Assembly: GCA_014905635.1 (NCBI GenBank)
Contig: JABVCE010000020.1
Coordinates: 372,001 to 436,000, forward strand
Source: Scenedesmus sp. PABB004
Lineage: Eukaryota
DNA length: 64,000 nucleotides
Direction of reading: 5' to 3'
The notes under the pieces: model-generated
The model's input: the letters and a program-made list of their open reading frames with translations, nothing else
The model's database searches: none
Told to the model about the DNA's origin: nothing
Shown: positions 1-57,054 of the stretch, in pieces
Position numbering within the stretch: the stretch's first letter is position 1
Layout of the letters: each line of letters begins with the position of its first letter
Position numbers and translations under genes: made by a program

Positions 1-3000
1 ACCTTGTCCTGCGCGGCGCGCGGCGTGCGACGCGGACGGCAGCAGGCGTAGGGCGTCGGGCCGGCCGGGCCCCGCACGTGTGCTGCGCGCGTGCTGTGCT
101 GCGCGCGTGCTGTGCGTGCTGTGCGTGCTGTGCGTGCTGTGCCTGCCGCGCGGCGCGACGCGCGCGCGCGCCTGCAGGTAGTGCGTGAAGAGGTAGACCC
201 ACTTGCTCGCCCACGTGGCGAGGCTGGTCTTGAGCGGCTTGGCGCTCACGCGGATGAACCCGACCACGCCGCTCGCCGGCAGCGCAGCAATCTCGGCGCC
301 CACTGCCCTGCGCGCGCGCGCGGGAGGAGAAGGGGGAGCGAGGGGGCGTGGGGCGCCGGGCATGGGGCGTGGCGCGTGCGCTGCCGCAGGTAGGCGGCGC
401 GTGCAGCGGCACACAGCTCCCGCCGTGGTCCAAGCACACGGCCTGGCTCACTTGTACTTTTGGATCGCCTCCTCAAACTTGGCCAGCGGCGGGTCCTCGC
501 GCGACCCGTCGGGCGCCGTCGTGGCCTCGGCCTCCAGGAAGGCCTGTGCGCGGGGCCGCGGCAGCGCGGCGGCTCAGGCGCAGGGCGGCAGCTGGCCGGC
601 GCAGCCAGCCAGCCGCGCCCGCCGCCGCGCGGCGGCAGCGCCCCGCCGCGCGCGCCCTGCGCGCACCGCGAGCGCGGCGCCGAGGTCCTGGCGCCAGAGG
701 TAGTCGTAGCGCGCAAACTTCGCCTTGAACTCCTCGCACGCCGCGACGTTGGCCAGCGTGACGCTGAGCACCTGCGGCGCGCGGCACGGCAGAGGCAGCG
801 TGGGGCAGCGCAGGCACTGCCGTCGGCTGAGGGCGCGGGCGGCCGGATGGCGTGCAGCCGGCCGCCGCCGCCGCCGGCACCGCCGCCGCTGCGCTGCTGC
901 CGCGGCCCCGGCCCCGCGCGCACCCGGTCGAGCTGCTCCGCGACGTCGTAGTCCTCCTCCAGCTCCTTGGCGTAGCTGCCCTCCCCCGTGTCGAGGCGCT
1001 TGACGAGCCCCCCGACCTCCAGCAGCGACACAAGCCAGCGCTGCACCAGCGCCGTCAGGCTGCCCTTGTCGCCGCCCGCGAGCTCGGGCCGCCACGCCAT
1101 CTCCGGCCCCGCGAGCTCCAGCTCCACCTCCAGCAGCGGCCCCGCGCCGGACCTGCGGGGCGCATGCGCCGCGCCGCGCCGCAGCGTGGTTAGCGAGCGG
1201 CTGGGGCGGCGCTCAGCCGCCCGGGCGCCCCGGCGCGCGGCGCCTGCCCACGCTCGCGCGCGCGCGCGCGCCTGGCGAGGGCGTCGGGGTCGAGCTGCTG
1301 CAGCAGGTAGCGCGTGGACGCGGTGATCGCGGCGCCGTAGCCGGCGACCACGATGTCGCTCACGTAGTCGACGTACGCCCGCCAGCACGGCGAGCCCTTG
1401 CTGACCTGGGGCGCGAGCAGGCGGCGACGGCGTGGGCGAGGCTCGGACAGGCGCGGGCAGGCGACGGGCAGGGCACGCACAGCGTGCGGCGCGCAGCGGC
1501 GCGGCGCCGCGCGGGGCGGCCTGCCAGGCGGCGGCGGCGGCGGCTGCGCGCTGCGCGCCTTGAGCACGCGGTTGCTGGCGGACAGGTGCTTGCCGATCTC
1601 GCGCCCCGCGTCGCGCATCTCGGCGTGGCGCTGCGCGATGAGCGCGGCGCTCGCGTCGCGCAGCTCCTCGTACGTGTACACGCGCCCCTCCTGCGCGCGG
1701 CGGCGCGGGCTATGGGTCAGCGCGGCCGGCGCGGCCAGCGCAGCCAGGCGCACGCGGCGTGCCGCGCCGCGCCGCGCCTTGCGTTCAAACATCAGCGCGC
1801 GCTCAAAGCCGCGCAGGATGTCGACCGTCGTCGCGACGTTGGCGCGGATGGTGGAGAGCACCACGTCCAGGTCGCGCACGAGCTCGAGCGTGTCCCGGAT
1901 GTACGGGTCGATGCCCTCGCTGCGCCAAGCGAGCTCCTCCAGCCCCCGCTGCAGCGCCGCCTCTGCGCGGCGGCAGCGCGGTCGCTTGTGAGCAGCACGT
2001 CGGCGCCGCGCCGCAGCGCGCGTGCCGGCGGCGGCGCGGCGCGAGGGCGGGCGCCGCGCGCACCCGCGGCGTCGAGCTTGCCCGCGACGAGCGGCCGCTC
2101 CACGGGCAGCGTGGAGCGCTGCAGGCGGTTGTAGAGGCCAACCATGAGGTCGAGGCTGCCGATCTGCTGCCGGAAGCGGTCCGCGCCCGCAAAGATCGCG
2201 GCCGCGCTCGGCGGCACCTGTGCAGGCCGCGGCCGCCGCAGCGGCGGCGCGCGGCCGTGGGCGGCGGCGCGGCGCGGCACGGCACGTGCTGCGAGGCGCG
2301 GCGGGGCTGCGGCTGGTGGGGCGGCAAAGGGCCACGTGATATCGCGCGGCCGCCGCACCTCGACCTTGAGCTGCAGGAAGTAGCGCGTCTCACGCAGCAG
2401 CCGCACGAGCGCGGGGTCAAAGTTGACCGCGAGCAGCGGCAGGTCGCCGGTGCTGTCGCCGTGGAACTGCAGCAGCGGCTGGTTGAGCTTCTCGTCGCTC
2501 GTCGCGGCGACCTGCGCGGCGGCGGCGTGGCGCGCGCGGGCGGCGGACGCGTCGGCGGCTGAGCCACGCGCCGCGCGACCGTTGGCGCGATCAACGGCCG
2601 CCCCGCGCGGCGCGCCCGCGCGCCGCACGCACCTGGCCGCACCAGTCCTCCACCAGCGCCGCCTCGTAGCCGCGCAGCTCGGCCATGAGCGCCTCGTGCG
2701 CGCGCGCCGCCGCGGCCCAGGCCGGCAGCTCCGTCACGCCGCGGTCCATGCCCGCGAGCTTGGCCGCGGGCTCGGCGAGCCGCTCCATGAGGCCGCGCAC
2801 CCACGACACCGCGCCTGCGGCGGCGACAGGCCGCAGCAGCGCCTGTCGGGCGCCGCGCCACGGCGTCGCCAGGCTGCAGCGCCGTGCCGCCAGGCTGCGG
2901 CGCGGGGCGGCCAGGCTCGCGGCGCCTGCGGCGCCGCCTGCGCGCGCGCACCCGAGTGCGGGGGCGCGTTTTTGCTGAGCACCGGCCACGCGCGGTGCGC

Positions 3001-6000
3001 CGCAAAGAGCTCGCCGACCTCCTTCACGTCCGCCGCAAACGCGTCGACCATGCCCTTGTGCTTCTTGGCGAGCTCCGCCGCGATCGCGTCGCGCTCGAGC
3101 AGGCCCTCAAAGCTCTCCAGCAGCTTGAACGTCGTCGCGAGCGTGGTGCAGTCGTCAAAGGCCTGGCGCGGCGGCGGCGGCAACGCGCGGCGCGCGGCGG
3201 GCCGGTCAGCGCCGGCGCGGCGCGCGCAGCGGCGCGGAGCGTCCTCGTCCGCGTTGCCCTCGCAGTCCATGGCCCTGGCCATGCACGCTAGCTCCCTCGT
3301 CTGTGTCGTGCGCGTGCTACGAAGCACGTGGGCGGCCAGACGAGGACGCTAGTCCATGGCCAGGGCCATGGACTGCGAGGGCGACGCGGACGAGGACGCC
3401 AACCCCGGCGGCTGCGGCGGCTTGGGCTGGGTGCGGCACGGCGCGGAGCGCCGCGGCTGCGCCGTGACGCGGCGCGGCGCGGCGAGGCGCGGCGGCGCGG
3501 CGCGGCAGGGCGCGCCTTCATGATGAGCGCGCCGAGGCGGCGCTCCAGCTCGCGGATGACGGCCCGGAACGCGCCGTGGTCGGCCTCAAACCCCGGCGCG
3601 TCGGTGTCCATCACGTCGTACGTCACCTGCGCGCGCGGCGCGTGGCCGGGACGGAGGCGCGCGGCAGCGAGCGCGCGGCCGGTGAGCGGCGGCGTCGCGC
3701 GCGCCAAGGCGGGGCGCGCGGCGGCGGCGGCGGCGGCGGCGGCGCCGCGCACACACCTGCGTGAACCTGCCGTGCGCCGCCAGGAAGTCGGCGTGCACCT
3801 GCTTGATCGCGCCCGTGAGCGCCTTGCCCTTGGTCCCGCCGACCTCGACGCGCTCGAGCCGCCCAAACTGCGCGACCGTGCTCTGCAGCTCCAGCATGTC
3901 GGCGCAGCGCTCCAGGAAGGCATCGAGGCGGCCGAAGACCAGGCCGTTCTGGAAGCGCCACGGCGCGTCCGGGCACTCGGCCGCGCTCGCCGCGCGGTAG
4001 GCGTAGTAGTGGCCCTTGAACGCGCCGAGCACCTTGAGCGCGGTGCGCAGCCGCTCGACCGCCTCGGCCGGCTCCATGCGCAGCAGCTCCGGCCCGGGCA
4101 CGTACTTGCGCGCCTGCGCGGCGCGCGCAGCGGCGCGCGGCGGCGGGGGCACGTTTGGCCGCCGGTCAGCCGCGACTGACCACCAGCCCCGAGCGCGCCT
4201 GCGCGGTTGAAGCTGGAGCCCAGCCGCCGGCTCGTCGGTCACCTGCATGATGAGGTCGTTGCAGACCTCGTGCAGCAGCGTCACAAAGCGCGCGCTGCTC
4301 GCGTAGCTGGCGCTGTGCTTCCAGATGAGCAGCAGCACGTGCAGCAGCGGCTTGAACTGCTCCGCGAGCGCGGGCAGGTCGTCCATGGTGTTCAGGCGCT
4401 CCAGGAAGGGCCGCAGCGGCGCGAGGAAGCGCACGTTGTCCGCCGCCTCGGCGCGCGCCGCCGCGACCTCCTGCGCGCGCGCGCGGGCGGGGCGGGCCGG
4501 CGGTGCGGCGCGGCGCGGTCATCGCACATGCGTGGGGCGGAGCGGCCGGCCACGGCCCCCCGGCGCGGCGCGCTGCAGGCCGCCCGCGCTGCAGGCTGCC
4601 CGCGCCGCGCGGCGGCGCACCTGCACGACGCGCTCAAACGCCGGCGCGTAGCTGCTCTGCGCCAGCTCCAGCGCGCGCGCCACCTTTTGCACGCGCTCGC
4701 TGCTGAGCTGCTCGTGGATGGAGTTGAGGTTGGCGGCGCGCTCGCCCCAAAAGTCGAGCTCCGCGAGCGGGCCGGGGTAGGCGCCCGTGCCCTGCTGCGC
4801 GCCCGGCGGCCGGCCCCGCCGCCCGTCGGCGCGCGCGTCAGTCGGCCGCGCCGGCTGCCGCGCGCCGCGGCCCCCGCTGGCCCACGCACAGCGCACAGCG
4901 CACAGCGCACAGCGCACAGCGCACAGCGCACAGCGCACAGCGCACAGCGCACAGCGCGCAGCGCACAGCGCGCAGCGCACAGCGCGCAGCGCGCAGCGCA
5001 CAGCGCGCAGCGCACAGCGTGCAGCGCACAGCGCGCAGCGCACAGCGCGCACCTTGAGCGGCGCGTCCGGGTCGGCCTTGAGCACCGCGCGGATCTGCTT
5101 CGCCCACGAGAGCACCGTGCTCTCGAGGATGTGCACGCGCGACGCGTCGCCGGCCGCCTGGTCCGGCTGCGCCGTGTCGGGGCCGAGCGCCGGCAGCGGC
5201 AGCACCGTCTGGCCCTTGACCTCGCCCAGCGTGGAGCTCACTGCGCGCGGCGGCGGGCGCGGCGGCGCGCGGGCGGGCGCGGGTCGGGCGCGGCCTGCAG
5301 GACGGCGCGCCGAGCGCGCTGCACGGCCGCACGTGCGCGGCTGCCGCCGCGCGCCCCGCCGCGCGGGGGCGCACCGTTTGCCACGAACTTGTGCAGCGAC
5401 TCGGTCACCTCCCGCGCGACGACGTCGGGCCAGCCCTCCTGGTTTGGCGGCGCCGTCAGGAGCGGCAGGAACACGTGCTGCGCGACCGCGCAGAGCGTCT
5501 CCAGCGGCGCCTCGGTGAGCTCGCCGTGCGCGACAAGCCGGCGTATGCTCTCCGCGTCCAGCTTGGCGGGGGCGGTCTTGAGGAAGTACACCGTCTTGCG
5601 GCGCAGCCGCGACGGCGGCTTGACCGCCTGCGGCGGTTGGCGACGCCGGCGCGCGCGGCCGCTCAGCGCCCGCGCCCCCGGCGGCGCCGCGCCGGCGGCG
5701 GCCGCCCGGCCCGGCGCCGGGCGCGGCGGAGCATGCTGGCGCGCGCGGGCGCGGGCGCGGCGCGGGCGCGGGCGCGCCGCGCGCTGCGTGCCGCCGCACG
5801 CGCGCGCGCACCGCGCCCAGGTCCTTGCCGTCCAGGTACACCAGCAGGCGCTTGGTGTCGGCATCGTCCAGGAAGCTCACCAGCGCGGCCCTGCGGCGCG
5901 GCGCGGGCTGGGCGCGGCGCGCGCCGGCCGCGCGTGCGCGCGAGCAGCGGCGGCGCGCGCGCCGTCCTCACCTCGCCTCCCCCTGCAGCAGCCGCGCGAA

Positions 6001-10638: not shown

Positions 10639-10848
10639 CGCACACGAATGCAACGTGAATCGGGGGCCACGATTGGCCGGGCGGGCGAGCTCGGAGAGGC
10701 TCTAGTGCGCCGTCATTCATTCGACGGTTCAGCGCGACGCGTCGCCGCTGCCTCGCCGCAGCGGCCCGCTGCGCCCGCGCCGGTGCCGCCACACCTGCCC
10801 TACCCGCTCTCCTGCTCGCAAGGAGCTCACCGCGCCGACTTCCTGCGC
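10639..10848. promoter_or_regulatory. Probable bidirectional promoter between the DUF2322-like gene and SurE
   Basis: Divergent ATGs about 210 bp apart, with a locally lower-GC spacer. Confidence 0.45.
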
Positions 10849-12484
10849 ATGCTCCTGCTCCTGCGCGGCGCCGCCCGGCCGCTGCCGCACCGCCGCCGCT
10901 GCCGCCGCGGCATGGCCGCCGCCGCCGCCGGCCCGGGGGCACGGCCGCGCGTGCTGGTGTCCAACGACGACGGCATCGGCGCCCCGGGCCTGCGCGCGCT
11001 CGTCGCGGCGCTGTCGAAAGCGGACGTCGCCGACGTGTTCGTCTGCGCGCCGAGCGGCGAGCGCTCGGCGACGAGCCACGCCATCACGCTGGGGCGCTAC
11101 CTCTCCTGCTACACCTCCGACGTCCCCGGCGCGGCCGCGGCGTTCGCGGTCGACGGCACGCCCGCCGACAGCGTGATGCTTGCGGTCAACAGCGACGTCT
11201 TCAGCGTGCGCGGCGGTTGACGGCGGCCGCGGCGACGGGGGCGGCAGCAGGGCTGGAGCAGCAGGGCGGGCGCGGGAGCGTGAAGAGCCAGCCAGCGGCG
11301 GGAGCCTGTCAGGCTGACCCGCGCGCTCACCCGCGGGCGCAGGGCGCTTCGTTCGACCTGGTCGCGAGCGGCATCAACCGCGGCGACAACTGCGGCCTCC
11401 ACGTCATCTACTCCGGCACCGTCGGCGCGGCGCGCGAGGCGCGGCCCGGCTGCGCCGCCGCGCCGCGGCGGCACGCCGCGCGGCCCGGCCACGGCTGTGC
11501 CCGTCCCCGGCGCTGCGCGCCGGCGCCGGCGCTGATGGCACGGCGCCGCCCGCCCCGGCCCCGCGCCGCCCGCTCTGTTTGCCCGTCGTCCCTGCGGCCA
11601 GGCGGCGTGCAAGGGCATCCCGGCGATCGCGCTGTCGCTCGCCGACCACGGGGCGAAGCGGGAGGAGGCGTATGCGGAGCCCGCGCGCCTGGCCGTGGCG
11701 CTCATCACGGCGCGGCGCGGCGCGGCGCGCCGCGCCGCGCCGCGCGACGCCGCGGCCGCCTCCCCGCCCCGCGCCCGGCCGGGCCGCCCCACGCCCGGCC
11801 GCGCCGCCCCGCCCGCGTCCCGCGCGCCCCGCGCGCCGCGCCCGCGCAGGCGATGCTCGCGCGCGTGTCGGCGGCCGAGGCGGCCCACGCGGCCGCGTTT
11901 GAGGCGGGGTGCGTCGTCAACGTCAACTTCCCGGCCGCGGGCGCGGGGCTCGCGGGTCTCGCGCTCACGCACCAGGGCGCCGGCTGCGTGTTTCCGGCTT
12001 TCAAGGAGATTCGTGAGGACATCGGCGAGCACCTGCCGGGTGCGTCCGCGCCGCGGGGCGCGCGGGCGCGCGGGCCGCCACCCACGCCGCGGCGCCGGCG
12101 CCGCCGCGGGGCGCGCAGAGATCGACGAGCACACGCCCAACCTGCGGGTGTTCCGGAACTACGCCGGCGAGCACCGCGGGTGCGCTGCTGCCGCGCCGCG
12201 CCGCGCCGCGCCGCGCGCGCGTGCGCCGGCGCCTCGGGCCGCGCCACACGCGCCGCGCTGCCCCCCTCCGTGCCCGCCGCAGCGACGACTCGGAGGGCTC
12301 GGACACACACGCCGTGTCTCGGGGCTGGGTGTCCGTTACGCCGCTCGCGCTGCGCCAGGACGTGCGACGCGACGCCGACGCGTGCCCGCTCGGGGTCGGC
12401 GCGCGCGACGCGGTGGCGGCCATCGTCGCGGCGGCGGCGGCCGCCGCGGCGCTGCCGGCACGGGGCGTGGGCGCGGCGGCCTGA
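10849..12484 (+). CDS. surE: SurE-family 5'/3'-nucleotidase (acid phosphatase), multi-exon
   Basis: RVLVSNDDGIGAPGLRALV, VCAPSGERSATSHAIT, VDGTPADSV, DLVASGINRGDNCGLHVIYSGTVGAAREA, VVNVNFP and GSDTHAVSRGWVSVTPL. An alternative ATG lies at 10912. Confidence 0.93.
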
Positions 12485-12755
12485 ACGGCGGGCGCGGGGC
12501 GTGCGTCGCGTGGCGTGAACCCTGGGCGGCACGCCGCGCCGCCCAGCCGCATGCGTTTCGCACAGCGCCGCGGGACACACTCAAACGCCCGCGCTGCCGC
12601 AGCGCCAGTGCGAACTCCTGCCCGCGGCGGCGACAGCGGCAGCAGCAGGGCCACACCACCTCAGCCGCGCGGACCTGCCGCTCGCGGGGCCGGGGCCGAT
12701 GTGTGGCGGCCGGTTCCGGCCGCGCGTCGCGGCCTAGCCGCTCGGAGCGGCGAGC

Positions 12756-15700
12756 ATGGCGCGAGCAGCGCCGGCAGGGCCGCTGCCAGCGGCGCTGCTG
12801 CTGCTTCTCCTGCTCGCGGGCCGGGGCGCCGGAGCGCCGTGCGGGCTGCTGGACGCCGACGGCTGCTGCGGCGCGGCGTGCGAGCTGGCGACGTGCGTGG
12901 CGTTGCGCGCGGTGGGCGAGGCGCTCGGCGCCGCGATCCCGCCCGGCGCCGCCGCCGCCGGCGACGGCGGCGAAAACGACGCCACGCCACCACCCTGGCG
13001 CAGCCGGCTTGGCTGGGCGGCGCTCTACGACGGCGGCGCCGGCGCCGGCGGCGCGGACGCTGCGTGCCGCGCCGCGCTCGCCGCCGCGGCGCGGGGCGGC
13101 GCGGCGCCGCCGTACTGCACCTGGCTGGGCGTGTCGTGCAACGCGACTGCGCACGCGGCGACGTGCGGCGCCGGCGGGCGCGCCGCGCACGGCGTGGAGG
13201 CGCTGGAGCTGGTCGACCTGCCCGTGTCGGGCTCGCTCAACAACCCGCGCCTGCTGCCGGCGGTCGACGCGCTGCAGCGCTGCTCGCTGACGCGCTTCGC
13301 GGTCGGCGGCGCGTCGTACGGCCTGACCGGCACGCTCGAGCCGGGCTGGGGCCGCCTCGACAAGCTGCGCACGTTTGCCATCTTTGGCACAAACCTCACC
13401 GGCTCGCTGCCGCCGGAGCTCGGCGGCATGGCCGCGCTCGAGGACATGGGGCTCGGCGGTGCGCGCGGCCGCCGCGCCCCGCCGCGCCCCGCCGCGCCCC
13501 GCGTGGCCCGGCTCCGCGCGCGCGGGGCGGCGCGCCGACCGCCGCGCCGCGCCGACCACCGCGCCGCGCCGCGCCGCAGCAAACTACATCTACGGCACGA
13601 TCCCTTCCAGTTTGGGGCGGCTCAAGAACCTGCGCAGCCTGAACCTGGCCAAGAACGGCTTCACCGATATCGGCCTCGGTGCGTGCGTGCCCGCGGTCGC
13701 GCCGCGCGGCGGCCGCGCGGCGGCGGTAGCCCCAGCGTCACGCCGCGCCGTGCCGCGCACCGCCGCCGCCGCCGCCGCGCACCGCCGCCGCCGCGCACCG
13801 CGTCGCAGAGCTCAACGGCTCCATACCGTTGAGCTTTGACCGTCTCACCAAGCTGGAGGTGCTCAGCCTCGAGAGCAACGCCTTCAGCGGGACGCTGCCC
13901 CCGCTGTGTGCAAGAAGCTGCCGCGGCTCAAGGTGCGGGCCGGCGGCGGCGGCGGCGGCGGCGCGCCGCGCGTGCACGACCGGCGCCGTGCGGCGCGGCG
14001 CGCCGAGGCCCTCGCTCCTCGTGCACGCTGCCGCCGCGCAGGCGGTCAGCCTGCGGCAGAACAAGTTTCGCGGCCCGGCGACGATGTTTGGCGACTGCGA
14101 GCTCGTCTCCCTCGACCTTGCGGTGCGGTGGCCCGGCACGGCCCCGCCCCGCCTCGGCGGCGCGGCCGCCTGGAGCGGCCCCGCAACGCCGCGCCGCGCC
14201 TGCGCCACGCCTGCGCTGAGCCGGCGGCGCGGCCCGCCCTAAACCGCACGCCCGCTCCTCACCCCTCCGCGCCCGCCCCTCCCCCGCCCGCCTTGCAGGA
14301 CAACCTGCTCACAGGCTCCTTGCCCGCGCCGGCGCTGGACAGCACGGCGTGGCGCAGCCTCGTGATGCTGCGGCTGTCGAACAACGACTTCACGGGCAAC
14401 CTGCCGGAGTTTGAGTACGGCCAGGTGCGGCCTGGCCGCCCGGCGCCCGGCCCGGCCCCGCCCCCCTGCGCCGGCGCGCACGGCGGCCGACCCGACGCGC
14501 CCGCCCGCCCGCCCGCGCGGCCGGCCGCCCGCGCGCGCGCGCGCGCCAGGCGCCCGTGCTGACGACCGTGCAGGCGGCGAACAACAGCCTGACCGGCAGC
14601 ATCCCGCCCAGCTGGACGAGCCTGCTGCCGTGGCTGGCGACGCTCGATCTAAGCTTCAACCAGCTCAGCGGCACGCTGCCGGCGGAGTTTGCGTTCCAGA
14701 GCCGCCTCACGGTCCTGTCGCTCAACGGGAACAACCGCATGCGCGGCTCCATCTCGCCCTGGTTCCGGCTCGCGAGCTCGCTGCAGTCCCTGACGCTGAG
14801 CGACACCAACGTGGCGGGCGCGCTGCCGGGCATGTCGCGCGCGGCGTGGGCGGCGTCGGACGTGCCGCCCGCGCGGCTGTGCGGCAGCGCCGCCGCCGGC
14901 CTCGCGCGGCTGCCCAACCTGCAGTCCGTGGGCATCGCGAGCAGCCAGATGGCCGCGGACTGCGACAACGACGCGCAGAAGTGCCGCACCGTCGACGACG
15001 TGCTGCCCTGGTGGGCACCACGGCGCGGCGCGCGGCGGCGGCGGTGGCAGCCCAGGGTTTAGGCCCGGCGCGCACGCGCCTGTGCGCGCGCTCACCGCCC
15101 GCGCGCACTCTCGCGCCGCAGGTATCTCCGCCCAGACATGCTGACGTGGCAGGTGCCGCTGCCGGACGACGGCGTGTCGCAGAACCAAAACATGGAGTGC
15201 CCGCGCCTGGTGCAGGACCAGGTGCGGGGGCGCGCCGCGCCGCGCCGCGCCGCGCCGTGCTTGCCCCCGCGGCGGCCGGCTCTCTCGCGCCGAGCTCCCG
15301 TCTCCTCCCCCCTGCCCGCGCTCGCAGTTTTGCCGGCAGAACCGCGCGCCCGAGAACTTCACGCGCGGCATGGCGCCCACGTGGACGGTCAGCCCCGCGT
15401 ACTACCACTACATCGGTGGGGCGCAGCGGTTTAGCGGCTGAAGGGCTGGGGTTTAGGGGCTGGGGCCCAGGCTGGAGGCGTTGCTTTTATTTGCGGGTTC
15501 AGGCACCCGCCATGCGCGGCACGGCCAGGCGGGCCCGCGGCCGGGCGTCCGCGCGACGCCAACGGCGCCGTGCCGCCGGCGCGTGCCGCCGCAGGCTGCC
15601 GCTGTTTCCGGGGCTTCCGGCCGGTCTATTCGACCGTGGCTGTGGGCAACATCAGCGTCAAGGCCATGCAGGCGCGCCCGCGCGGCGCGCACGCGCACGA

Positions 15701-18700
15701 CGGAGCGCGCCTCTGCGCCGCCGCCGCTCCACGCCCGCGCCTCGCGCCGCTGCCGAGCGGGTGCGCGCTGCCGAGCGCGTGCGCGCCGCCGCCGCCGCCG
15801 CCGCACCGCGGCGGCGCAGTGCGTTGAGGACGCGCAGCTGGACAAGGCGGCGGTCATGGCCATCAGCATGGCCGTGAGCGTCGCGGGCGTGCTGCTGGGC
15901 GCGTACGTCATCTACGTCTCCTGGTACGGCCGCTGGGGCCTGCCGCGACTCAAGCGGGTGCGGCGCGGCGCGCTCGCCGGCGCGCCGGGCGCGCTGGGGT
16001 TGCGGTCCAGGTGCCGCCGCGGCCGGGGCGCGTGGAGCGCGGCGGGCGCGAGCCCACGCACACGCCCACACGCCCACGTGCACGTGCACGGCCGCGCGCC
16101 GCGTTGCCAGGCGTACGACGACCTCAAGAAGCGCCGCGAGGGCGCGCCAAAGTCGGGGCGGCTCTCGGTCGTCATCACAGACATAGAGTCGTACTCAGGC
16201 GCGCCCGAGCGCGAGCGCGAGCGCGCGCGCATGCGCATGAGCGAGCTACCACGCCCGCGTGCTCCGCCGCGCGCGCCGCCCGCGCTCGCGCGCGCCTCGC
16301 GCGCCGCGCCGCGCGCGACCCGCGCGCCGCCGCGCACGCGCCGCGCCGCAGCGCTGATGGTGGCGATGCCGCTCGTGATGGGCCGCGCGCTGTCGGCGCA
16401 CAACAACGCGATGCGCAAGGCCGCGTGGACGCACTACGGCTTCGTGGTCGGCCAGGTGGGTGGGTGGGGCCTGGGTGGGCATCCAAATGGATGACCTAGG
16501 GGGCGTCCCGGAGCCGGGAGCCTACGTGCGGCGCGCAGGGCCTGCTCGCCGCCGCCGCCGCGGGCTGAGTGCGGGGCGCCGCCGGGCGCCGCCGCCGCGG
16601 CAGGAGGGCGACAGCTTCCTGCTGAGCTTCCGCGAGGCGGTCGACGCGGTGGCCTTCTGCCTGCAGGCGCGGCGCCGCGCCGCACACACGCCGCGCGCAC
16701 TGGCGCGGCGCGGCGCGCGCGGCGCGGCCGAGCCTGCCGCCGACTGCCATCGCGCGCGCGCGCGTGCCGTTCGTACCCCGGCCGCCGCAGGTGCAGCAGG
16801 CGCTGATGCGCGTGGAGTGGCCGCTGGAGCTGCTCGCGCACCAGCAGGCGCTGGACGCTGCGTCGGCGGGCCTCGGCCCGCCGCCGGGCGCCGAGGGGGC
16901 GGGTGTCTCGTCGTGGCTGGCCGACGCCTCGCCGGCGAGCGGCGACAGCAGCCTGGCGGGGCCCATGCGCTCGGGCCACTCGGGGCCGGGCTGCTCGCCG
17001 CCGCCGCGGGCCTGCGCGGCGGCGGCGGCGGCAGCGGCAAGCGCGCGCGCTCGATCACGAGCGCGCCGTCGCCCAGCGGCGGCTGGGCCGGCGCGGCGTC
17101 GGGCGACGAGAGCGCTCACAGCATCGCAGGCGGCGGCGGCGGCGGGCCCCGGGTGGGCAGCGCGACGTCGTCCACCTATCGTGAGCCCCCCGCGCCGCCG
17201 CCGCCGCGAGCGCGCCGCCTGCCGCGAGCGCGCCGCCTGCCGCGAGCGCGCCGCTCCCCGGGCCGGGCGCGCCGGCACCGCCGCGCAGCGGCGCTGCCGC
17301 GCGGCGGCGAGCCCGTGGTCGGCGCCGCGCGCTGCCCGCCCGGGGCCCACCGCGCCGCCCGCCCGCCTGCCCGCCCGCCCGCCCGCCCACGTCTGCCCCG
17401 CCGCAGTCTCCGTCAACCGGTTCGCGCCCTCCAGCAGCGAGGACGGCAGCGTTGGGCCGTGGTCGCCCTACATGGGATGGTCGCCGCACTCACGCGCGGC
17501 GCCGCCGCGCACGAGTGGCGGCAGCCCCACCGGCGGCAGCCCCAGCGCGGCGGCGGCGGCCGCCCGGCCGAGCGCGTGGCGGAGCAGCCTCGACGCGCCG
17601 CCGTCGCTCGGGCCGTCGCCGAGCGCGCTGGGGCTCGGCGCCGCGCCGCCGCCGCTGCCGCCGCCGCCGCCGCCGGCGGGCCCGGCGGCGGTGCCGGCGG
17701 TGACCGCGCTCGTCCCCGGCCTGCGCGTGCGCATGGGCGTGGCGACCGGCATGATGGCCGCCGACGAGAAGGACCCGCTGTCCAGCCGCGTGCTCGCGGC
17801 CGCCCGGGGTGCGGCGCGGCACGGGCGCCGCCCGGCTGGTTGCAGGGGCGCGGCAGGGCGCGCGCGCCCGGCGGCACTAAAAACGCCGCCGCCACCCGCG
17901 GCCGGCGCCGCCGCCGCTGTCGCAGTCGTGTCGGACGCGGGCTCGGGCGGGCAGGTGCTGCTCGACACCGCGACGTTTGCGGCGGTCAAGGACAGGCTGG
18001 AGGAGCTCGGCCAGGTGCGCCGGCCGGCCCGCGCACCGCGCTGACGAGCGGCGCCCGGTCGCGGCGGCCTGCCGGACGGCGCTGCCGGCAGGCTCGCCAC
18101 CGCGCCGGCGCGCGCGCGCGCGCCCCGCGCGCAGGTCGGTCCCAACGGCTACATGCGCTCGAACCGCGTGATCGGCTGGGGCACGCCGCGCGGCTGGCTC
18201 GCGCGCCTGGTCAGGTGCGCGCCGCGGGGGCTCGCGCGCGCGGCGCGCGGCGCGCGGCGCGGCGCTCCCGCGCGGCGCGGCGCCGACGCGGCTGCCGCCC
18301 CGCGACGTCCGCGCGCGCAGGCGGCACATCGACCTGGCGGCAGAGGCGGTGGTTCTGGACATGGGCTTGTACAGCGTGCCGGGCTTCACCGGCGCCTGCG
18401 CCGCCGACGCCGCGCGCGCGCTGCCAGACGTGCCGCCCGCACTGCCCGGCAGCGGCGAGGCGCCGCCGGGCGCGCCGGGCGACGCAGCGCTCGCGGCGGC
18501 AGAGGCGCTCCGGGCGCACGGCGGGCTGTCGCGGGTGTCGGAGGCCGCGCCGGCTGCGGCGGCGGCGGCCGCGGCGGCAGCTGCCACGGCGGCCGCCGCC
18601 GCCGCCGCGGCGGACGAGGCGGCGGCGGCCGCGTCCGCGGCGGCGGCGGCGCGCTGCGCCTGTACCAGGTGCTGCCGCCGCGGCTGCTGGACCGCGTGCA

Positions 18701-21700
18701 CCTGTACGGCACGCGCCTCGCGCTCAAGACCGGCGCGCGGTGCATGGACCTGCCCTATTTCGCAGCGCCCGCGACCGGCGGCCGCTCGCTGGTCGACCAG
18801 ATGCTGACAAGCAGCAGCTTCAGCTCGTCGCGCGCGCTCAGCCAGCGCGTCATGCTGCGGCGCCGCGCCGGCGGCAGCGCCGGCGGCAGCGCGCCGCCCG
18901 CGCCGGCGCCGCCGCCCGCGCCAGCGTCGTCGCCGGCGCGGGGCGGCGCGCCGCCGCTGGCCAACGGCGGCGGCGATGCGAGCGCGCGGCGCGCGGTCGG
19001 CGACCCGTCGGGGCGGTCCGGCGCGCTGTCGGACGCGCCGTCGCTGGCGCCCTCGCTCGCGCCGTCGCTCGTGCCGTCGCTCTTGCCGGCGTCGCCGCGG
19101 GAGGCGGAGAGCGAGCCGGACGACGACGCGGCGACCACGTTTGTGTTCTGCTCGGCGCTGCTGCCCAAGACGCGGTGCGGCGGCGGGCCTGCGTGCGGCG
19201 GCGCCTGCGGCGCGCGACCGGGCGCCGCTAGCCGGCCTTTTGCGCCTGCGGTCGGTTGCGATACAGATGGCCCCCGCCGCCGCCGCCGCCGCCGCCGCAG
19301 TCTCGCGGAGCCCGCGGCCGCGCAGGTCTCTGCGACCATGAGCCGCGTGATGCGGCAGTGCCTGCTCGCGCTGGCGGCCGCGCCAGCGGCGGGCAGCGCC
19401 GGCGGCAGCGGCGGCGACGACGCGCGCTCCGGCGCGGCGGCGGTCCGGGCGCCGGGGTACCTGTGCCGCGAGGTGCCGGGCGACCTGAAATATCTCCTGG
19501 TCTTCACCAGCCCCCGGGTGGGTGATGCGGGAGCAGAGCACGCCGCCGCAGCCGGCCCGCCGCCGACGGGCGGCGGCCGGGCGCTCAGGCGCGCTGGCAG
19601 CGCGGCGGGCGCAGCGGGCGCGCCGCGACCCTGCTTTGCGCGCCGCCGCGCCGCGCCGCAGCTCGCGCTCGAGTGGTGCCTGCTGGTGCAGGAGGCGCTG
19701 CTGTGGCAGGACTGGCCCGCCGCCGCGCTGTACACTGTGGAGGGGCCGGGCGAGCGCGGCGCGGGCGGGCGCGTGCTGTTCCGCGGCCCGCGCGTCAAGT
19801 GCGTCGGCCGCGCACGCGCGCCCTTGGGCCGCCGCTGCGCGGCGCCGCCGCCGGCCGCGCGCCCGCCGAGCGCCGCCCCTGCCGCCGCCGGCGCAGGATG
19901 GGCGTCGCCACGGGCGCGCCGCAGGCGGTGTGCCCCGACCACCTCGGACGCGCCGATTACCATGGCAACTCAATCAACTCCGCCGCGCGGTGCGCCTGGC
20001 GCTGAGGGCCTCGCTGCCGCGCGCGCGGCGCGGCGCCGCGCTGCCGCCGGGCCGCCGGCCCGCGCCCCGCCCGGCCCAGAGAGAGGGGCAGGCCACGTGA
20101 CGCCGCCGCGCGCCGCCCGCCCGCCGCGCGCAGGTACGAAGCCGTGTGCAGCCAGGGCGGGCAGGTGGTGTGCGACGCGGGCCTCGCGGCGGCCGTGGCG
20201 GCCGAGTGGGCGGAGCTCGCGGCGCGCGCGGAGCACGCGGCGGCGCCGCGCGCGCACGCGGGCGACGACATCAGCTTCTCTGCTGGCCCCGCGGTGGACC
20301 AGCAGCGCGCGCCCAGCCCCTTTGCCGCGGACGAGCAGCAAGCGGCGGCCCAGGCGGCGGCGGCGGAGCCGGTGGAGCTGCTGCTGTCGCCCAGCAGCAG
20401 CGCGAGCGGGCCGCTGGCGGAGCCGGGCCGGACGCCTCTCGAGGCGGCGCTCCCGGGCGCCGGCGCCGGCACAGGCGACGCCGCGGCGCTGCCGATCGCG
20501 GGCAGCACTCCGCGCCGGCGGGCGCGGTGCAGGCCGCGCTGGCCGAGGCGCCGTCACTGACCTTTGCCGTCGGCTCGGCGCCGGCGACCCCCCAGGGCCC
20601 GGCGCTGCGGTCGCCTTCGCGGGCTACCGCCCGAGCGGCGCGCGGCGCAGCGGCCTGTGGCCGCTGCACCACCACCACCACGGCGCCGGCAACGCGGGCG
20701 TCTCGCGGCGGCGCTCCGAGGCCGGCGCCGCGCAGGGCATCGAGCTGGCGGGCGGCCCCGGCGCGCCCATCAGCCGCGCGGCGTCGGCAGAGCCCGGCTT
20801 CTGGCGCAGCACCCACCGCGGCGGCGCTGGCGGCGTCGCCGGCTGCGAGGCGTCGGAGGCGTCGCTCGGCAGCCGCACCACGGCCCCGCCCGGCGTGCCG
20901 GGCCTCGGCGGGGGGCTCGGGTTTGGCTCGCGCCGCCCCTCGGCGGCCGGCAGCAAGCGCGGGCCGCGCCCTGCGAGCCGCTTTGCGCTGCCGCGCGGCG
21001 GGCCGGTCGTCGTGTCGGCGCCGACGCCGACCGAGCTGCCGTGCGCGCCGTGCGTATCGCCGCTGCCGGCCGAGGTGTTTGCAGTGGAGGTCCACCAGGC
21101 GCGCGCGCCGCCGCGCGGCCGCGCCGCGGGCAGCCGCCCGGGGCAGCTCCCCGCGCCGCGCCGCGCCGCGCCGCGCCGCCGGCGCCTGCCTGCGCGCACG
21201 CGCGCGCGAGCGGCCTCTTTGATGCCCGCCCCACCCGCCGCCCCGCGCTCCACCTCCGTCATCCTCAACTCACCTTGCCCCACACAGATCGGCCGATACC
21301 TGGTGAAGGGCCACTCGGGCCCCGTGGACATGGTGGAGGTGTGCCTGTCCCACCTCGCGGGGCGCCGCGCGCTGCTTGCCGAGGCGCCGCCGCGCTGCGC
21401 CAAGGGCGAGCTGCTGAGCGCGGCGTCGGGCTGCGTCGCGGCGCTGCCGCGCGTCGCGCTGCCGGGCGTCGCGGGCCGCTATCGCGCGCACCACGCGGCG
21501 GCCGCGGCGGCCACGGCGGCGCGCGTCGCGGCGGCCGCCGCCGCGAGCGCCGGCGGCGCTGGCGGCGCCGACGGCGGCGACGGCCCGGCCTCGCTGCGCC
21601 AGCGCTCGCTGCCCGTCGTGCGCATGCTGTCGCGCGGGCTGTCCACGCTCTCGACCGGCAGCGGCGGCGCGCCGCCGGCGGCGCGCAGCGGCGGCGGCAG

Positions 21701-21947
21701 CGGCGGCGCGGCGCGCGGCCCGGGGTCGAGCGGCAGCGGCCCCGGCAGCGGCCTGCGCGCCGGCAGCGCCGGCAGCGGCGCCGCGCCGGCGGCCCGCGCG
21801 CCGAGCTGGATGCGGACGTTCAGCCTGCGCAGCACCAGCAGCACGAGCAGCAGCCCGCGCGGCGGCGGCGGCGGTGGCGGCGTCCCGGCGCCGGGCCGGC
21901 ACGGCGGGCTGGGCGCGGTGCGTGACGTGCCTGAGGAGGGCGCCTGA
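12756..21947 (+). CDS. Receptor-like protein: signal peptide, LRRNT + plant-type LRRs, single TM helix, two class III adenylate/guanylate cyclase homology domains; about 20 introns
   Basis: Signal peptide ALLLLLLLAG. LRR region: YCTWLGVSC, NLTGSLPPELG, LESNAFSGTLP, LSFNQLSGTLP. TM helix AAVMAISMAVSVAGVLLGAYVIYV (about 15847-15920). Cyclase 1: SVVITDIESYS, QEGDSFLLSF, GLRVRMGVATG, GGQVLLD. Cyclase 2: TFVFCS, LFRGPRVKMGVATG, ADYHGNSINSAAR, GGQVVCD, GRYLVKG. The model needs frame corrections near 16983, 20500 and 20590. Confidence 0.82.
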
Positions 21948-31581: not shown

Positions 31582-34185
31582 ATGGCCGTCCGCGGCAGCC
31601 GCGCCCTGGCGCGGCACGCCCTCGCACTGGCGGCGGCGCTGGCGCTGCTGCTCGCGTGCGCTCCGGCCGGCGCGGCAGCGGCGCGCGGGCCCAGGCGCGG
31701 CCTGCTGGCGGGCGAGAGTGGCTCCCGCAGCCTGACGTCAGCCAGGGCTGCGCCCGCCGTCGACTGCCCGGCCGGCAGCGGCGTGCCGGCGGGCGCCGGC
31801 GGGGCCTGCGCGCCGTGCAAGCGCGGCACCTGGTCGGTCGGCGGGCCGGACGCGAGGTGCAAGACCTGCCCCAAGGGCTACGACACCGCCAGCGAGGGTT
31901 CAAAGTCAGCACGGGCCTGTAGCCACTGCCGGGCCGGCTACGGAGGCCCCTCCACCTGCGCGCCCTGCCCGGCCGGCACGTGGCGCGCCGCCAAGCCGGG
32001 CGCGCGCATCAGGGTGTGCCGCGCCTGCCCCGTGCTTATGACAACACCAGGCCCGGGCGCCAAGAGCGCGGCCGCGTGCAACCAGAGTCTCGCCCTCCCT
32101 GATGATCCGGTGGCGTCGGCGCTGCTGCGCGGCCTGGCGGAGCTTGCCGGCAGCGCGCCGCTCGGCAATCCCGATCTGGCATCATGGCGCCCCGGCACCG
32201 ACCCGTGCACCTGGGCTGGTGTGACGTGCTCAGAGAGAGCGCCGCGCGTGGTGACGTCAGTCGGCATCGATTTCACAGGACCGTGCACCGGCCGCCTGCC
32301 GCGCGCCTGGGGCGAGCTCGGCCCTGGGCTGGAGAGGATCTCGCTCTCCATAGCCAGTCCATGCACCAGCGCCAGCGACCCGTCGTTGCCCCAGGAGTGG
32401 CGCAACCTCACCGGGCTCAAGAGCCTTACGCTTAACAACGTTGGCGTGACAGGCCCGCTGTCGCTGGCGTGGCTGCCGCCGAGCATGGAGCGCTTGGATT
32501 TGGGCGGCACCCGCTTCACCTCCCTGGCCGACGACGTGGAGCCGGGCGCGCTGCCCGCACTGCGCAAGCTGAGCGTCGCTCAAGACTCTGCGTACCCCAT
32601 TGGCGGGGCGCTGCCGGGCTCGTGGTCAAACCTCGCGGCGTTGGAGGAGCTGCGCGTGCAGGTGTGCTGCCAAGAGCTCTCTCAGGGACCACTCCCTGCA
32701 CCAGGAGGGCCGTTGCCCGACCGGCGCGGCATGGCGAGCCTCAAGCAGCTGGACCTTACTGGCCTCGGGCTGACCGGCGCGCTGTCGCTGGCGGCGCTGC
32801 CGCCAGCCGTGCAGATGGTGCAGATTGCATTGGGTCACTTCATCTCCCTCGCCGACGACGTGGTGTCTGGAGACCTGCCTGCGCTGCAATCGCTGAGCAT
32901 TGGCCAGTACCCCCAGCAACGCCTCGGCGGGACGCTGCCGGCCTCCTGGTCACAGCTCTCCGCGCTGCAGGAGCTGAGTATCCAAGGCCAGGCGCTGACT
33001 GGGCCCCTGCCCGAGGCATGGGCAAGCATGGCGGCGCTTCAGGGGCTCGGCCTGGGCGGCAACGCGCTCAGCGGCGAGCTTCCCGCCGCTTGGGGCAGCG
33101 GCATGGCCAACCTCACGTGGCTGGACCTGTCGCGCAACAACATCACCGGCCCCATCCCCGAGGCCTGGGTGGGCATGGCGACTCTGCGAGAGCTGCGGCT
33201 GTCGCACAACGCGCTCTCCGGGCCACTGCCCGCCAAGCTGCCCGCCAAACTGGCGTCCCTGGACCTCAGCCACAACCAGGTGCGGGCGCCTGGCGGGAGG
33301 GCGGAGCAGTGCCGCGGACGGGCCCAGTCCGGCCGGGCTCCACGCAGGCTGCGGCAGGCGTGCGAGCGCGCGCCCACAGACCAACCTGCGCCCTGCCCCC
33401 CTGTGCTGCCGCCGCCTCCCCGCAGCTGACGGGCCCGATCAACGGCTGGCCGGGGTGGGCACTTGCGTCATTCCCGGGCCCCTGTGACGGCTCCCTCAAC
33501 CTCGCCCACAACCGGCTGACCGGCCCGCTGCCCGCAGTGCCAGCGGGCGGGGCTCAAGGCATTGACCTGTCGAACAACGCCCTCACCTCCACGCTGCCGG
33601 CCACTTGGGTGCACTGGGCGAGTAACAATTCACGTGGGTGCCGCGCGCGCTGCGCTGCAACCGCCGGTGTATCAGCGCGCGGCACGCTGTGGGCAGGCCC
33701 TGCAACCCCCGCTGCCGACAGGCTGTGGTGGGAGTGTCTCACTCAACCTCGCCAACAACCGCCTCCGCGGCCCGCTGCCGTCCGAGTGGGGCGCCTGGGT
33801 ATCTCAGACAGAGTCGATGATGCTGGTCTCGCTCAACCTCACCGGCAACCCGCTCAACGCATCGCTGCCCCCCGAGTGGGGCAGCATGGGTCTCATGACG
33901 TTGGACCTGAGCTTCTGCGACCTGCGCGGCGAGTTTCCTGCAACCCCGTGGGCGGCACTGGGGCTTTGGCACCTGGCCATCAGCGACAACCCGCAGCTCT
34001 CGGGTTGCCTGCCGCGCGCGTGGCTGGAGCGCGACATGGGGCTGCTGGTGCACCCGCGCGAGTGCGAGCTGCCAGACGGCTGCACCACCACGTGGGTGCT
34101 GCTGCGCGACTTGGCAAGCGGCGTAGCGCTGGACCCGAACCCGCTGCGCAACACCCAACTCACCGGCGTGTGCGCGGCCGAGTGA
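31582..34185 (+). CDS. Secreted Cys-rich (ephrin-receptor-like CxxCPxG) + LRRNT + LRR protein, 3 exons
   Basis: Signal peptide ALALAAALALLLACA, CAPCKRGTWS and CAPCPAGTW repeats, SWRPGTDPCTWAGVTC, and many LxLxxNxLxGxLP repeats. Introns at about 33280-33425 and 33634-33721. No TM or kinase domain seen. Confidence 0.85.
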
Positions 34186-51392: not shown

Positions 51393-52866
51393 TCACGGCC
51401 GCTCCGCCGCCGCGACCGCGGCGGCCGCCTCGGCGTCGGTGCCGGCCGCGCCGTCGGCCGAGGCGAAGATCGCAGCGCGGCGTGCGCCGGAGTCGTCAAC
51501 CGCGCCGCGAAACATGCCCGGCGAGTTGAAGGCATCGATTTCAACCCCATAGTCGCGGTCCACGCCGACGAAGCCGCCGTCCCCGGGCGCAAAGCTCCCC
51601 TCGACGACGGCGCGCAGCGCGGCGCGCAGCGACGCGCCGTCGTGCGCGACGCGCGCCGCGACGTCGTGCGCCGCGCTGCGGCGGAGGAACGCCTCGCCCA
51701 CGCCCGTGCCGGACAGCGCGACGCGCGAGTCGGCCCACGTGCCTGGCGTGTGTGCGGAGGGGTGGCGGGTGTGGTGCGAGCAGGCGCCCGCGGCGCCCAC
51801 AGCAGCACGACGGCTCGCCCCCCCCCCCCCCCCCCTCCAGCGCGGCGCCGCACCCGCGCCGATGATGGGCGTGTCTCCGATCCGGCCGTCCCACTTGTTG
51901 CTGCGCCCGCCCGTGCTCGTCGCGGCCGCCAGCCGCCCCGCGGCGTCGACCGCGACCGCGCCGACCGTCTGCCCGCCGTCGTGCGCGTCCGCGTCCGCCG
52001 CCGCCGCCGCCTGTGCCGCCGCCTGCGCGCCGCGGGGCGCCTGCACGATGTCGTCGCCCGCCGCGGGCGCGCCGCCGCCGGCGCCGCACAGCCGCGCCCA
52101 CTGCGCGCGGCGCTGCGGCGTCGTGAAGGCCGCGTTGTCCGGCACCAGCTCCAGCCCTGACCGCTCCGCAAAGTCGTCGGCCGCGGCTCCAGCAAGGAAG
52201 ATGTGGGGCGTCTCCTCCATGACCTATGGCGGCGGCGGCGGCGTGTGCCGGCGGCGGCCGGCCCGCCCGCGCGCCGTGCGCCGCGCGTCCGGCGCTTGCC
52301 TTGCGCGCGAGGAGAATCGGGTTACGCACGCGCGTGAGCAGCGCCGCCGCGCCGCACGCGCCGTCACTGGTCATGACGCTCGCCTCGAGCTCGTGCCGCC
52401 CGCCCGCGGTCAGCACCGAGCCCACGCCTGCGCGCGCCGGCGCGCGGCGCTCAGGGCACGCCGGCGGCCTGGCCCGCCGGCGCGCGCATCCACAGCTGGG
52501 CGGCACCGCAGCGCTCGCGCATACTGGCGCGTCGTGGCGGCGGGCGCGTCGCCGCCGGCCGCCGCCGCGCCGCCTCGCGGCGCGCGCTCCAGCGCCAAGC
52601 TCCCTGCCGCCGGGCCGCCGCGCGCCTGCGTTGAAGTGCGGATCGTCCTCTAGCACCCGAACAGCCGCGACGACGGCGTCGAGCGCGGGCCCGCCGCGCG
52701 CGAGCACGGCTTCCCCGGCGTCCAGTGCCGCGTGCACACCCGCCAGCGCCGCCTCCAGCCACGCCGGGTCTGTGGAGTTGATCACGCCGGCGCCACCGTG
52801 CACGGCCAGCGCAAAGCGTGGCCCGCCACCCGGCGGCAGCGGCGGCAGCAGCGGCTCCAGCGGCAT
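51393..52866 (-). CDS. Isoaspartyl peptidase / plant-type L-asparaginase (Ntn hydrolase), 4 exons
   Basis: LAVHGGAG, LEDDPHFNAG, ELEASVM, VRNPILLARKVMEETPH, nucleophile TVGAVAVD, AATSTGG, GRIGDTPIIGAGTWA and SGTGVGEAF. Confidence 0.93.
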
Positions 52867-56791: not shown

Positions 56792-57017
56792 TCACCGCCG
56801 GCCGGCGGCGACGCAACGGTGCAGCACGAAGCGCTCGTGCCGGTCGCCGCCCAGCGCGGGCAGCTCGGCAAAGCTCACCGACCACGGCCCCGGCGGCAGC
56901 TCGCTCACCGCCAGCCCCGCCGCCGCGGCGGCGTCGAGGAAGAGCTGCAGCGTCGCCGGCGCGCGCCGCGTCGTGGCCAGCACCGCGGCGCTGCCGGCGC
57001 GCGCCGCGGCGTCGCGC

Positions 57018-57054
<37 letters not shown>

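Follow-up and report, generated by a model that had tools for sequence, protein, structure and literature searches.

In mammalian membrane adenylyl cyclases (AC9, AC5 and AC8, and the VC1–IIC2 pair), two catalytic domains share one active site: C1 carries both metal-binding aspartates, and C2 carries the purine-specifying aspartate, the transition-state asparagine, an arginine and a lysine, with a serine at the first aspartate position. The trypanosomatid receptor adenylyl cyclases (GRESAG4.1, GRESAG4.3 and ESAG4; PDB 1FX2 and 1FX4) have a single-pass topology, a periplasmic-binding-protein-like ectodomain and one complete catalytic domain that homodimerises. The ligand-gated cyclase GC-A also crosses the membrane once; its ectodomain is of the ANF-receptor type, and a kinase-homology domain precedes a catalytic core that homodimerises. 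Fungal Cyr1/CDC35 carries leucine-rich repeats (LRRs), a PP2C domain and a single class III cyclase domain on one cytosolic chain. The disputed 'moonlighting' cyclase centres within plant kinase domains are unrelated to the class III fold. Green algae have long been known to use cyclic AMP (cAMP) and cyclic GMP (cGMP); mating and nitrate signalling are two examples. Here we describe a gene of the chlorophycean alga Scenedesmus sp. PABB004, at positions 12756–21947 of the + strand of a 64,000-nucleotide stretch of contig JABVCE010000020.1 (the whole stretch is hereafter called the window). Its predicted product places LRRs outside the cell and tandem, complementary cyclase domains inside, a layout found in neither Cyr1 nor GC-A.

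On balance we consider it probable that the gene encodes a single-pass, receptor-type class III nucleotidyl cyclase with a composite active site, formed between its first (D1) and second (D2) cyclase-homology domains. This reading is carried by the gene structure, by homology, by the modelled folds of D1 and D2 in a paralogue and by a conserved split of catalytic residues. The predicted order of parts is a leader, the LRRs, a Cys-rich stalk, one transmembrane (TM) helix, D1 and D2, with low-complexity loops separating and interrupting the domains (Table 1). The division of labour matches that of the mammalian enzymes. The algal receptor differs from them in having one TM helix rather than 12, an LRR ectodomain and a D2 that keeps the second metal-binding aspartate (Asp B); the two six-helix cassettes of the mammalian type are absent, as only one TM peak is seen besides the leader. 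The trypanosomatid cyclases supply the closest solved domain (sequence E 3.7e-5) and share its fold, including the C-terminal extension (Z 23.0–23.9 over 207–210 of 231–235 residues), whereas the algal receptor has LRRs and two complementary, incomplete domains. With the plant LRR receptor kinases GSO1, FLS2, MIK2, PEPR1 and BRI1 it shares the repeat type and the single-pass layout, but it has no kinase domain and its output would be a class III cyclase.

Two cyclase-homology domains with complementary residues

Three proteins were retrieved when the TM-plus-D1 stretch served as query in a word-index search: Tetradesmus obliquus OEZ85_012668 (P0001, 1301 amino acids), an Enallax costatus transcript open reading frame (ORF; P0002) and a Hariotina reticulata protein (P0003). 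Hidden Markov models (HMMs) of the family's D1 and D2, from which the window sequence was left out, were compared with the 796 six-frame ORFs of the window. They matched only the + strand, between 15457 and 21944, and revealed no second cyclase elsewhere in the window. Against the spliced gene model both HMMs matched over their full lengths. The Pfam cyclase family PF00211 gave no match at E≤0.1 in the 17 unspliced + strand ORFs of the window, where only LRR families were found, because the exons are too short. In the orthologue P0001, PF00211 scored 25.1 bits (cut-off 21.9) over the first half of D1 only.

By phmmer, D2 of P0001 matched the Trypanosoma brucei proteins GRESAG4.3 and GRESAG4.1 (1FX4, E 3.7e-5; 1FX2, E 1.4e-4), and the Monoraphidium paralogue P0008 matched Ma1120 with D1 (E 2e-5) and 1FX4 with D2 (E 8.5e-5). 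GRESAG4 and Ma1120 were the sole PDB sequence matches of the cyclase domains; no mammalian C1 or C2 chain was among the matches at E≤10 (P0001) or E≤0.01 (P0008). The D1 and D2 family profiles also aligned with one another (hhalign probability 98.7%, E 1.5e-15), and in the ESM Atlas the clusters nearest to D2 belong to PF00211 (score 0.96).

AlphaFold 2 (AF2) models of P0008 were made with 15 alignment rows (predicted local distance difference test score, pLDDT, 62.4; predicted template modelling score, pTM, 0.56) and with 49 rows (pLDDT 74.3, pTM 0.69). The modelled D1 superimposed on 1FX4 with Z 23.5–23.9 and a root-mean-square deviation (rmsd) of 2.4–3.0 Å over 207–210 of 231 residues, and the modelled D2 superimposed on Ma1120 (4WP9_A) with Z 16.9–18.2 and an rmsd of 1.7–1.8 Å over 164/165 residues. 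The cyclase domain of GC-A (9BCV) was also among the fold matches. In these models the cyclase-homology fold appears complete in both domains, and the result should extend to the window protein because the family HMMs score its D1 and D2 at 375 and 309 bits.

The catalytic residues were placed by alignment, using roles known from the C1/C2 and homodimeric class III literature, and were counted in a 16-sequence and a 49-sequence set. The larger set, a non-random sample selected for length and to stay within size limits, comprised 36 sequences from a phmmer search with P0008 (P0008 included) and 13 found earlier. All of the motifs quoted in an earlier, sequence-only reading of this DNA (TDIESYS, EGDSF, VLAAAR, TFVFCS, LKYLLVF, INSAAR, GYLCR and ADY) occur in the + strand translation. 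Its account of D1 also stands: both metal-binding aspartates are kept, D690 and D733, and the transition-state Asn is lost (0/13 and 0/48 in the two sets), with Leu994 in its place. D1 would thus contribute the two metal-binding aspartates and the Arg of an RxRMG motif, having lost both the Asn and the phosphate-binding Lys, where the window protein has Pro1075; R971 and R973 are also present. Canonical cyclases have Lys or Glu four residues before Asp B. The window gene has Gly729 there and belongs to a Scenedesmaceae-type subgroup, with Gly or Cys before D1 Asp B and the Arg kept in D1.

For D2 the sequence-only reading had claimed the loss of both metal-binding aspartates, which is half right. 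The first (Asp A) is replaced by Ser1333, as in C2, but the second is kept as D1401 of PGDLKY, a placement given both by phmmer of the orthologue against 1FX4 and by hhalign of D1 against D2. Asp occurs at this position in 9/15 and 18/48 sequences, and judged by these counts it is merely unconstrained in the family. At the Arg position of the neighbouring β2–β3 hairpin, 14/15 sequences of the smaller set have Arg; the 48 of the larger set include 27 with Arg, 14 with Gln and 2 with Lys. D2 would contribute the purine-position Asp1478, the Asn1485/Arg1489 pair and Lys1776 of a VKG motif, which we take from mammalian C2 to be the phosphate-binding Lys.

In neither set do the metal-binding aspartates and the Asn/Arg pair ever all occur within one domain. 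The complementary sets are retained in 85–98% of sequences, while Asn in D1 and Asp A in D2 are each found in 0/48. The claim that the catalytic residues are complementary on alignment is therefore borne out in both sets. Read at the level of sequence, the split holds in the window gene, is conserved family-wide and is under selection; by the same evidence, neither D1 nor D2 could catalyse as a homodimer. Because each domain is incomplete, activity would need a D1–D2 pair, in which D690 and D733 together with N1485 and R1489 would be available to one active site, formed where D1 meets D2 as in animal C1/C2. The conserved C1-like/C2-like split is the strongest argument for such a composite site. 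Since the only PDB sequence matches were GRESAG4 and Ma1120, without C1 or C2 chains, convergence, separate from the origin of the animal pair, is the most likely source of the split.

Gene structure, receptor architecture and relatives

The gene itself is real. At 79% G+C the window has open frames everywhere, so lists of ORFs carry little meaning; the coding frame is instead marked by a third-position G+C of 0.9–1.0, a level kept throughout the exons. The gene model was built first with a dynamic programme on codon usage, then with the same programme plus homology bonuses from P0001, P0002 and P0003, and finally by setting junctions by hand where homology fixes the exon ends on both sides. 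Codon usage is the sole basis for the insert exons (16791–17406 and 20134–21098) and for the last 190 codons at the 3′ end. The automatic models retained read-through introns or created exons of 7 or 17 nucleotides (nt), and were replaced by the manual junctions. The manual model starts at an ATG at 12756, downstream of an in-frame stop at 12735–12737, ends with the stop codon at 21947, and has 25 exons, 24 introns and 27 coding segments. It is open over 1988 codons with zero internal stops, including two X read-throughs.

P0001, P0003 and P0002 all gave colinear tblastn matches along the coding span. For P0001 there were 13 colinear high-scoring segment pairs (975 bits summed, 43% identity), with E values from 1.2e-11 to 2.9e-55 across 13194–19990. 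CAG closes all 24 introns; of the donors, 19 are GT, most of them G/GTGCG (the slash marks the exon end), and 5 are GC. Four of the five GC donors read CAG/GCGCG, which is the usual consensus with T changed to C, and lie between exon ends fixed by homology. GC–AG borders in four or five of 24 introns are a high proportion, which the 79% G+C of the genome may explain. The last intron (21099–21287) is 189 nt long, a multiple of three, and free of stops, such that reading through it would keep the frame; its splicing is favoured by a pyrimidine-rich 3′ half and by the homology of its flanks.

Table 1. Features of the receptor-cyclase gene and its surroundings (positions in the window; residues in the manual model; counts are for the 16- and 49-sequence sets)
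Feature	Positions	Strand	Basis or remark
Whole coding span	12756..21947	+	Codon-usage/homology dynamic programme, manual junctions, colinear tblastn
N-terminal leader (putative signal peptide), residues 1–27	12756..12836	+	Hydropathy peak 1.87, residues 4–22
Plant-type LRR ectodomain, residues 147–532 (~390 residues), 7 exons	13194..15122	+	Pfam and PDB matches
Frame break 1 (after 13903)	13898..13908	+	One-base shift at or after C5 run, between conserved LRR segments
Cys-rich juxtamembrane module, residues 533–621	15123..15822	+	Kept across family; consensus and tblastn blocks
GC–AG intron, example	15672..15819	+	Donor CAG/GCGCGC; exon ends fixed by homology on both sides
Further GC donors of same type	16199, 16667, 21099	+	Donor at 16985 doubtful
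Single TM helix, residues 630–656, then basic stretch	15847..15927	+	Top hydropathy peak 2.16 (630–648)
D1 (C1-like), residues 683–1191	16159..18728	+	Family D1 HMM, 375 bits
D1 metal Asp A, D690	16180..16182	+	Asp 14/14 and 42/46
D1 Gly729, four residues before D733	16450-16452	+	Paralogue vs Ma1120 alignment
D1 metal Asp B, D733	16610..16612	+	Asp 15/15 and 45/46
D1 insert, 191 residues, Ser/Ala/Gly/Pro-rich	16860-17708	+	
D1 Leu994 (Asn position) and Arg998 (Arg position)	17793..17807	+	hhalign, D1 vs D2
Frame break 2 (after 18648)	18640..18653	+	GCG repeat, between Ala-rich stretch and conserved LYQ-type D1 segment
D2 (C2-like), residues 1326–1797	19131..21371	+	Family D2 HMM, 309 bits
D2 Ser1333 at metal Asp A position	19152..19154	+	hhalign; Asp 0/15 and 0/48 in family
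D2 β2–β3 hairpin: Arg1396, Glu1397, Asp1401 (metal Asp B position)	19467..19484	+	
D2 purine-position Asp1478	19955-19957	+	12/15 and 39/46; aligned to GRESAG4 D
D2 Asn1485	19976-19978	+	13/16 and 41/46; aligned to GRESAG4 N
D2 Arg1489, codon split by intron 19990-20133	19955..20134 region	+	16/16 and 44/46; aligned to GRESAG4 R
D2 insert, 251 residues, low-complexity (Ser/Ala/Gly/Pro-rich)	20195-21071	+	
D2 Lys1776 of VKG motif (phosphate-binding Lys position)	21306..21308	+	Lys 13/16 and 37/44
Neighbour-gene Pfam matches	2597-4887 (-), 10828-11214 (+), 51813-52157 (-), 54129-54488 (-), 56819-57451 (-), 58941-60281 (+)		

Taken together, Pfam, PDB, hydropathy and family-HMM comparisons recover the architecture proposed in the sequence-only reading: extracellular LRRs of the plant type, a single TM helix and a pair of class III cyclase-homology domains. 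The signal peptide of that reading is retained as putative, on hydropathy: the leader and the TM helix give the two strongest peaks of the protein. Pfam LRR_4, LRR_1 and LRR_8 scored above their cut-offs on the ORF at 14415–15062. The LRR exon at 14550–15008 matched 113 PDB sequences at E≤1e-3, among them the ectodomains of GSO1 (6S6Q, E 7.7e-52), FLS2 (4MN8, E 5.9e-50), MIK2, PEPR1 and BRI1. Of the profiles that the earlier reading had named, LRR_8 was thus found, while LRRNT_2, like the cyclase, had no match at E≤0.1 in the unspliced + strand ORFs. Between the TM helix and the first D1 strand there are only ~27 residues, and in the AF2 models of P0008 one continuous helix (162–207) runs from the TM segment to just before D1. 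No protein kinase was present among the Pfam matches of the 17 window ORFs or of P0001–P0003, and by the family HMMs the cytosolic part is occupied by D1 and D2. The proposal that a cyclase replaces the kinase of an LRR receptor-like kinase therefore stands as regards domains; its further step, a cAMP product, is less secure and is discussed below.

The architecture is not singular but belongs to a conserved chlorophycean family, and in this respect the sequence-only reading was overstated. The cytosolic part of P0001 gave 46 matches. The best 15, taken as the family, come from Tetradesmus (8), Hariotina, Monoraphidium minutum, Volvox africanus, Scenedesmus, Dunaliella tertiolecta and one JGI record, and 12 of these 15 have LRR Pfam domains. 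With Volvox D2 alone as query there were 18 matches, including Gonium pectorale, six from Chlamydomonas eustigma, Monoraphidium and Raphidocelis; 14 carry LRR domains and one has a PAN domain instead. An exhaustive phmmer search with P0008 against 1.84 billion representatives returned 120 clusters at E≤1e-30. Family members were found in Sphaeropleales and Chlamydomonadales, annotated as hypothetical or by automatic names; the annotated orthologues of Tetradesmus, Dunaliella and Gonium are intact.

P0001, P0003, Volvox africanus Vafri_16318 (P0009), Gonium pectorale GPECTOR_32g423 (P0050) and the Dunaliella tertiolecta protein P0005 have the same order of parts and the same residue split, and nothing essential distinguishes these orthologues and paralogues from the window gene, which is colinear with the full-length Tetradesmus and Hariotina proteins and with the Enallax and Dunaliella transcripts. 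Among assembled transcripts, the Enallax TSA ORFs P0002 and P0048 contain LRR, TM and D1, and the Dunaliella MMETSP peptide P0005 contains leader, LRR, D1 and D2. As these transcripts span the LRRs and the cyclase, the fusion is transcribed as one unit in the relatives.

Tandem D1-like and D2-like domains also occur without LRR Pfam domains (P0017, P0020, P0021, P0022 and P0027, from Mesostigma, Raphidocelis, Tetradesmus and Coccomyxa), and the tandem cassette may predate its fusion to LRRs. In the PAN-bearing match to D2, a protein of Scenedesmus sp. PABB004 (P0061, with a kinase/receptor source name), a PAN/apple domain (PF14295) replaces the LRRs beside the same D2. Binding-protein ectodomains are joined to a cyclase in Haematococcus and Astrephomene proteins. 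From these sequences the ectodomain of the cassette seems exchangeable, and the cassette itself appears modular, with several ectodomain types on green-algal cyclases.

Pairing, product and integrity of the window copy

In the mechanism that we propose, D1 would meet D2 either in the same chain or across a pair of receptor chains, ligand binding at the LRRs would control the pair through the short TM-to-D1 link, and the product would be a cyclic nucleotide. Several points weigh against it. The structure tests were made on the paralogue P0008 and not on the window protein; D2 of P0001 is wholly unrecognised by Pfam; three alignments put the first specificity position (Lys) in three registers; and the window copy is readable only with two one-base frame corrections. 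Moreover, when both P0008 models were compared with AC9 (9U3R, 7PDD and 6R4P), AC5 (8SL4) and AC8 (8BUZ), the two-domain alignments covered 312–337 residues with an rmsd of 15–17 Å and Z 15.4–16.8, which is no better than for a single domain. For a canonical head-to-tail pair, the rmsd should be low and Z much higher. The models thus fail to bear out the intramolecular C1–C2 dimer of the sequence-only reading; the pTM of 0.69 suggests that the domains are confidently placed, yet not in the canonical C1–C2 manner. AlphaFold may have missed pairing in cis, or the domains may pair in trans across a receptor dimer. If pairing is in trans, dimerisation would be the activating step.

The identity of the product turns on the specificity pair, which is Lys/Asp for ATP and of the Glu/Cys type for GTP. 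Guanylyl cyclases have Cys, Ser or Gly at the second position. The sequence-only reading had assigned the basic residue of GYLCR and the Asp of ADY to these positions. The Asp is supported as Asp1478, but the Arg of GYLCR could not be equated with the Lys by alignment. In the phmmer alignment, which has a two-residue gap here, the GRESAG4 Lys faces a Gly (Pro in the window). In the hhalign alignment Glu occupies the Lys position and the conserved Arg becomes an insertion. Anchoring the β2–β3 hairpin at its conserved Gly and Phe by means of the model strands would put Arg there. A product of cGMP, or use of both substrates, would make the protein a receptor guanylyl cyclase. In keeping with this, relatives are named 'guanylate cyclase domain-containing' in databases (automatic names), and Glu is the commonest residue (20/47 in the 49-sequence set) at one candidate D2 Lys position, with Glu1397 in the window. 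However, the second specificity position is Asp in 39/46, as in adenylyl cyclases, and adenylyl cyclases are the closest solved relatives. We regard a guanylyl or dual-substrate cyclase as unlikely. With a conserved purine Asp and no Glu/Cys pair of the guanylyl-cyclase kind, cAMP is somewhat more likely than cGMP. As a definite assignment cAMP falls a little short of an even chance, and what it and the guanylyl or dual-substrate reading leave over goes to a different product or to none.

The two frame corrections raise the possibility that the window copy is a pseudogene of the family, with both breaks real mutations and a locus that no longer makes the receptor. Each break, after 13903 and after 18648, lies between segments that match homologues in different frames, and at the first the space is too small for an intron. 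At the second, an intron would need a rare-codon, Arg/Gly-rich reading or an implausible 17-nt micro-exon, and was rejected. Both breaks amount to one missing base, read as X in the model, and both fall within low-complexity runs (C5 and a GCG repeat), where assembly indels are typical. The 1988 codons without an in-frame stop and the high third-position G+C of the exons also argue against decay. With the catalytic residues all intact, splice sites at consensus and codon bias maintained, assembly errors seem likelier than real mutations, and we consider a pseudogene rather unlikely. The neighbouring dynein gene was examined for frameshifts as a check on assembly quality; its Pfam matches leave space for normal introns and so speak neither way.

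A catalytically dead pseudo-cyclase, in which degenerate folds serve as a scaffold or nucleotide sensor, would explain why each domain is degenerate by itself, why the Lys position is non-canonical, why the AF2 models lack a canonical dimer and why Pfam does not recognise D2. However, the two domains have lost strictly complementary residues, and those that remain are conserved across 49 diverged sequences, whereas a scaffold should lose them, as D2 is losing its unused Asp B (kept in 18/48). Selection for a single working composite site predicts just this pattern, and a dead enzyme therefore seems improbable to us.

That two adjacent genes, one for an LRR receptor-like protein and one for a tandem cyclase in the cytosol, have been misread as one is very improbable: although green-algal tandem cyclases without LRR domains do exist, the TM exon (15820–15957) and the first D1 exon (16111–16198) lie 153 nt apart and join in frame at consensus sites, assembled Enallax and Dunaliella transcripts run from LRR to cyclase, and 14/18 proteins found with D2 alone have LRR Pfam domains.

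Genomic setting and implications for green-algal signalling

A second plant-type LRR gene lies at ~32200–33400 (+), with an LRR_8 match (E 4.4e-14) on 33040–33315 and tblastn matches to family LRRs; the D1 and D2 HMMs found no cyclase near it. By Pfam, the neighbours are ordinary nuclear genes. In the order of the positions in Table 1, they encode a dynein heavy chain (N-terminal region), a SurE-type nucleotidase, which lies directly upstream of the receptor gene, an asparaginase, an FtsZ-type protein (C-terminal domain), a lysine methyltransferase and a member of the actin family.

Literature searches, which did not cover supplementary files, found no paper on a class III cyclase with extracellular LRRs in algae, and no characterisation of this architecture. 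RNI-like is the name of the LRR superfamily. In the part of it available to us, a review (PMC5632652) names 13 domains that accompany Chlamydomonas cyclases, 'RNI-like' among them, with reference to Meier 2007, so that on the word of that review the combination of LRR-type and cyclase domains would already have been catalogued in Chlamydomonas in 2007. The same portion says that the cyclases behind algal cyclic-nucleotide responses 'have remained elusive'. In the available text of a 2022 ciliary proteome (PMC9561859), the channel-cyclase CYA18 is merely proposed as a mating candidate. Voltage-sensor cyclases of Phytophthora are the subject of PMC12223298. The word 'cyclase' is absent from the accessible portion of a 2026 survey of chlorophyte receptor kinases (PMC12757656); judging from that portion, kinase-centred surveys would miss LRR–cyclase receptors.

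More speculatively, ligand-driven pairing of chains in trans could build the active site in a chlorophycean counterpart of signalling by plant LRR receptor kinases, with a residue split independent of that in animals and a family linking extracellular cues (peptides, gamete or cell-wall signals) to cAMP or cGMP. We put this whole forward tentatively and think it less likely than not. If it were true, the signal would be a cyclic nucleotide instead of phosphorylation, with many paralogues per genome.

The locus thus belongs to a real, conserved and uncharacterised family of receptor cyclases, for which the proposed mechanism is plausible and is supported by conservation. The family provides concrete candidates for the proteins that turn outside cues into cyclic nucleotides in green algae. 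In addition, the 'two halves, one site' design of C1/C2 has probably been invented here a second time, independently, and the family may help in asking why that design recurs.

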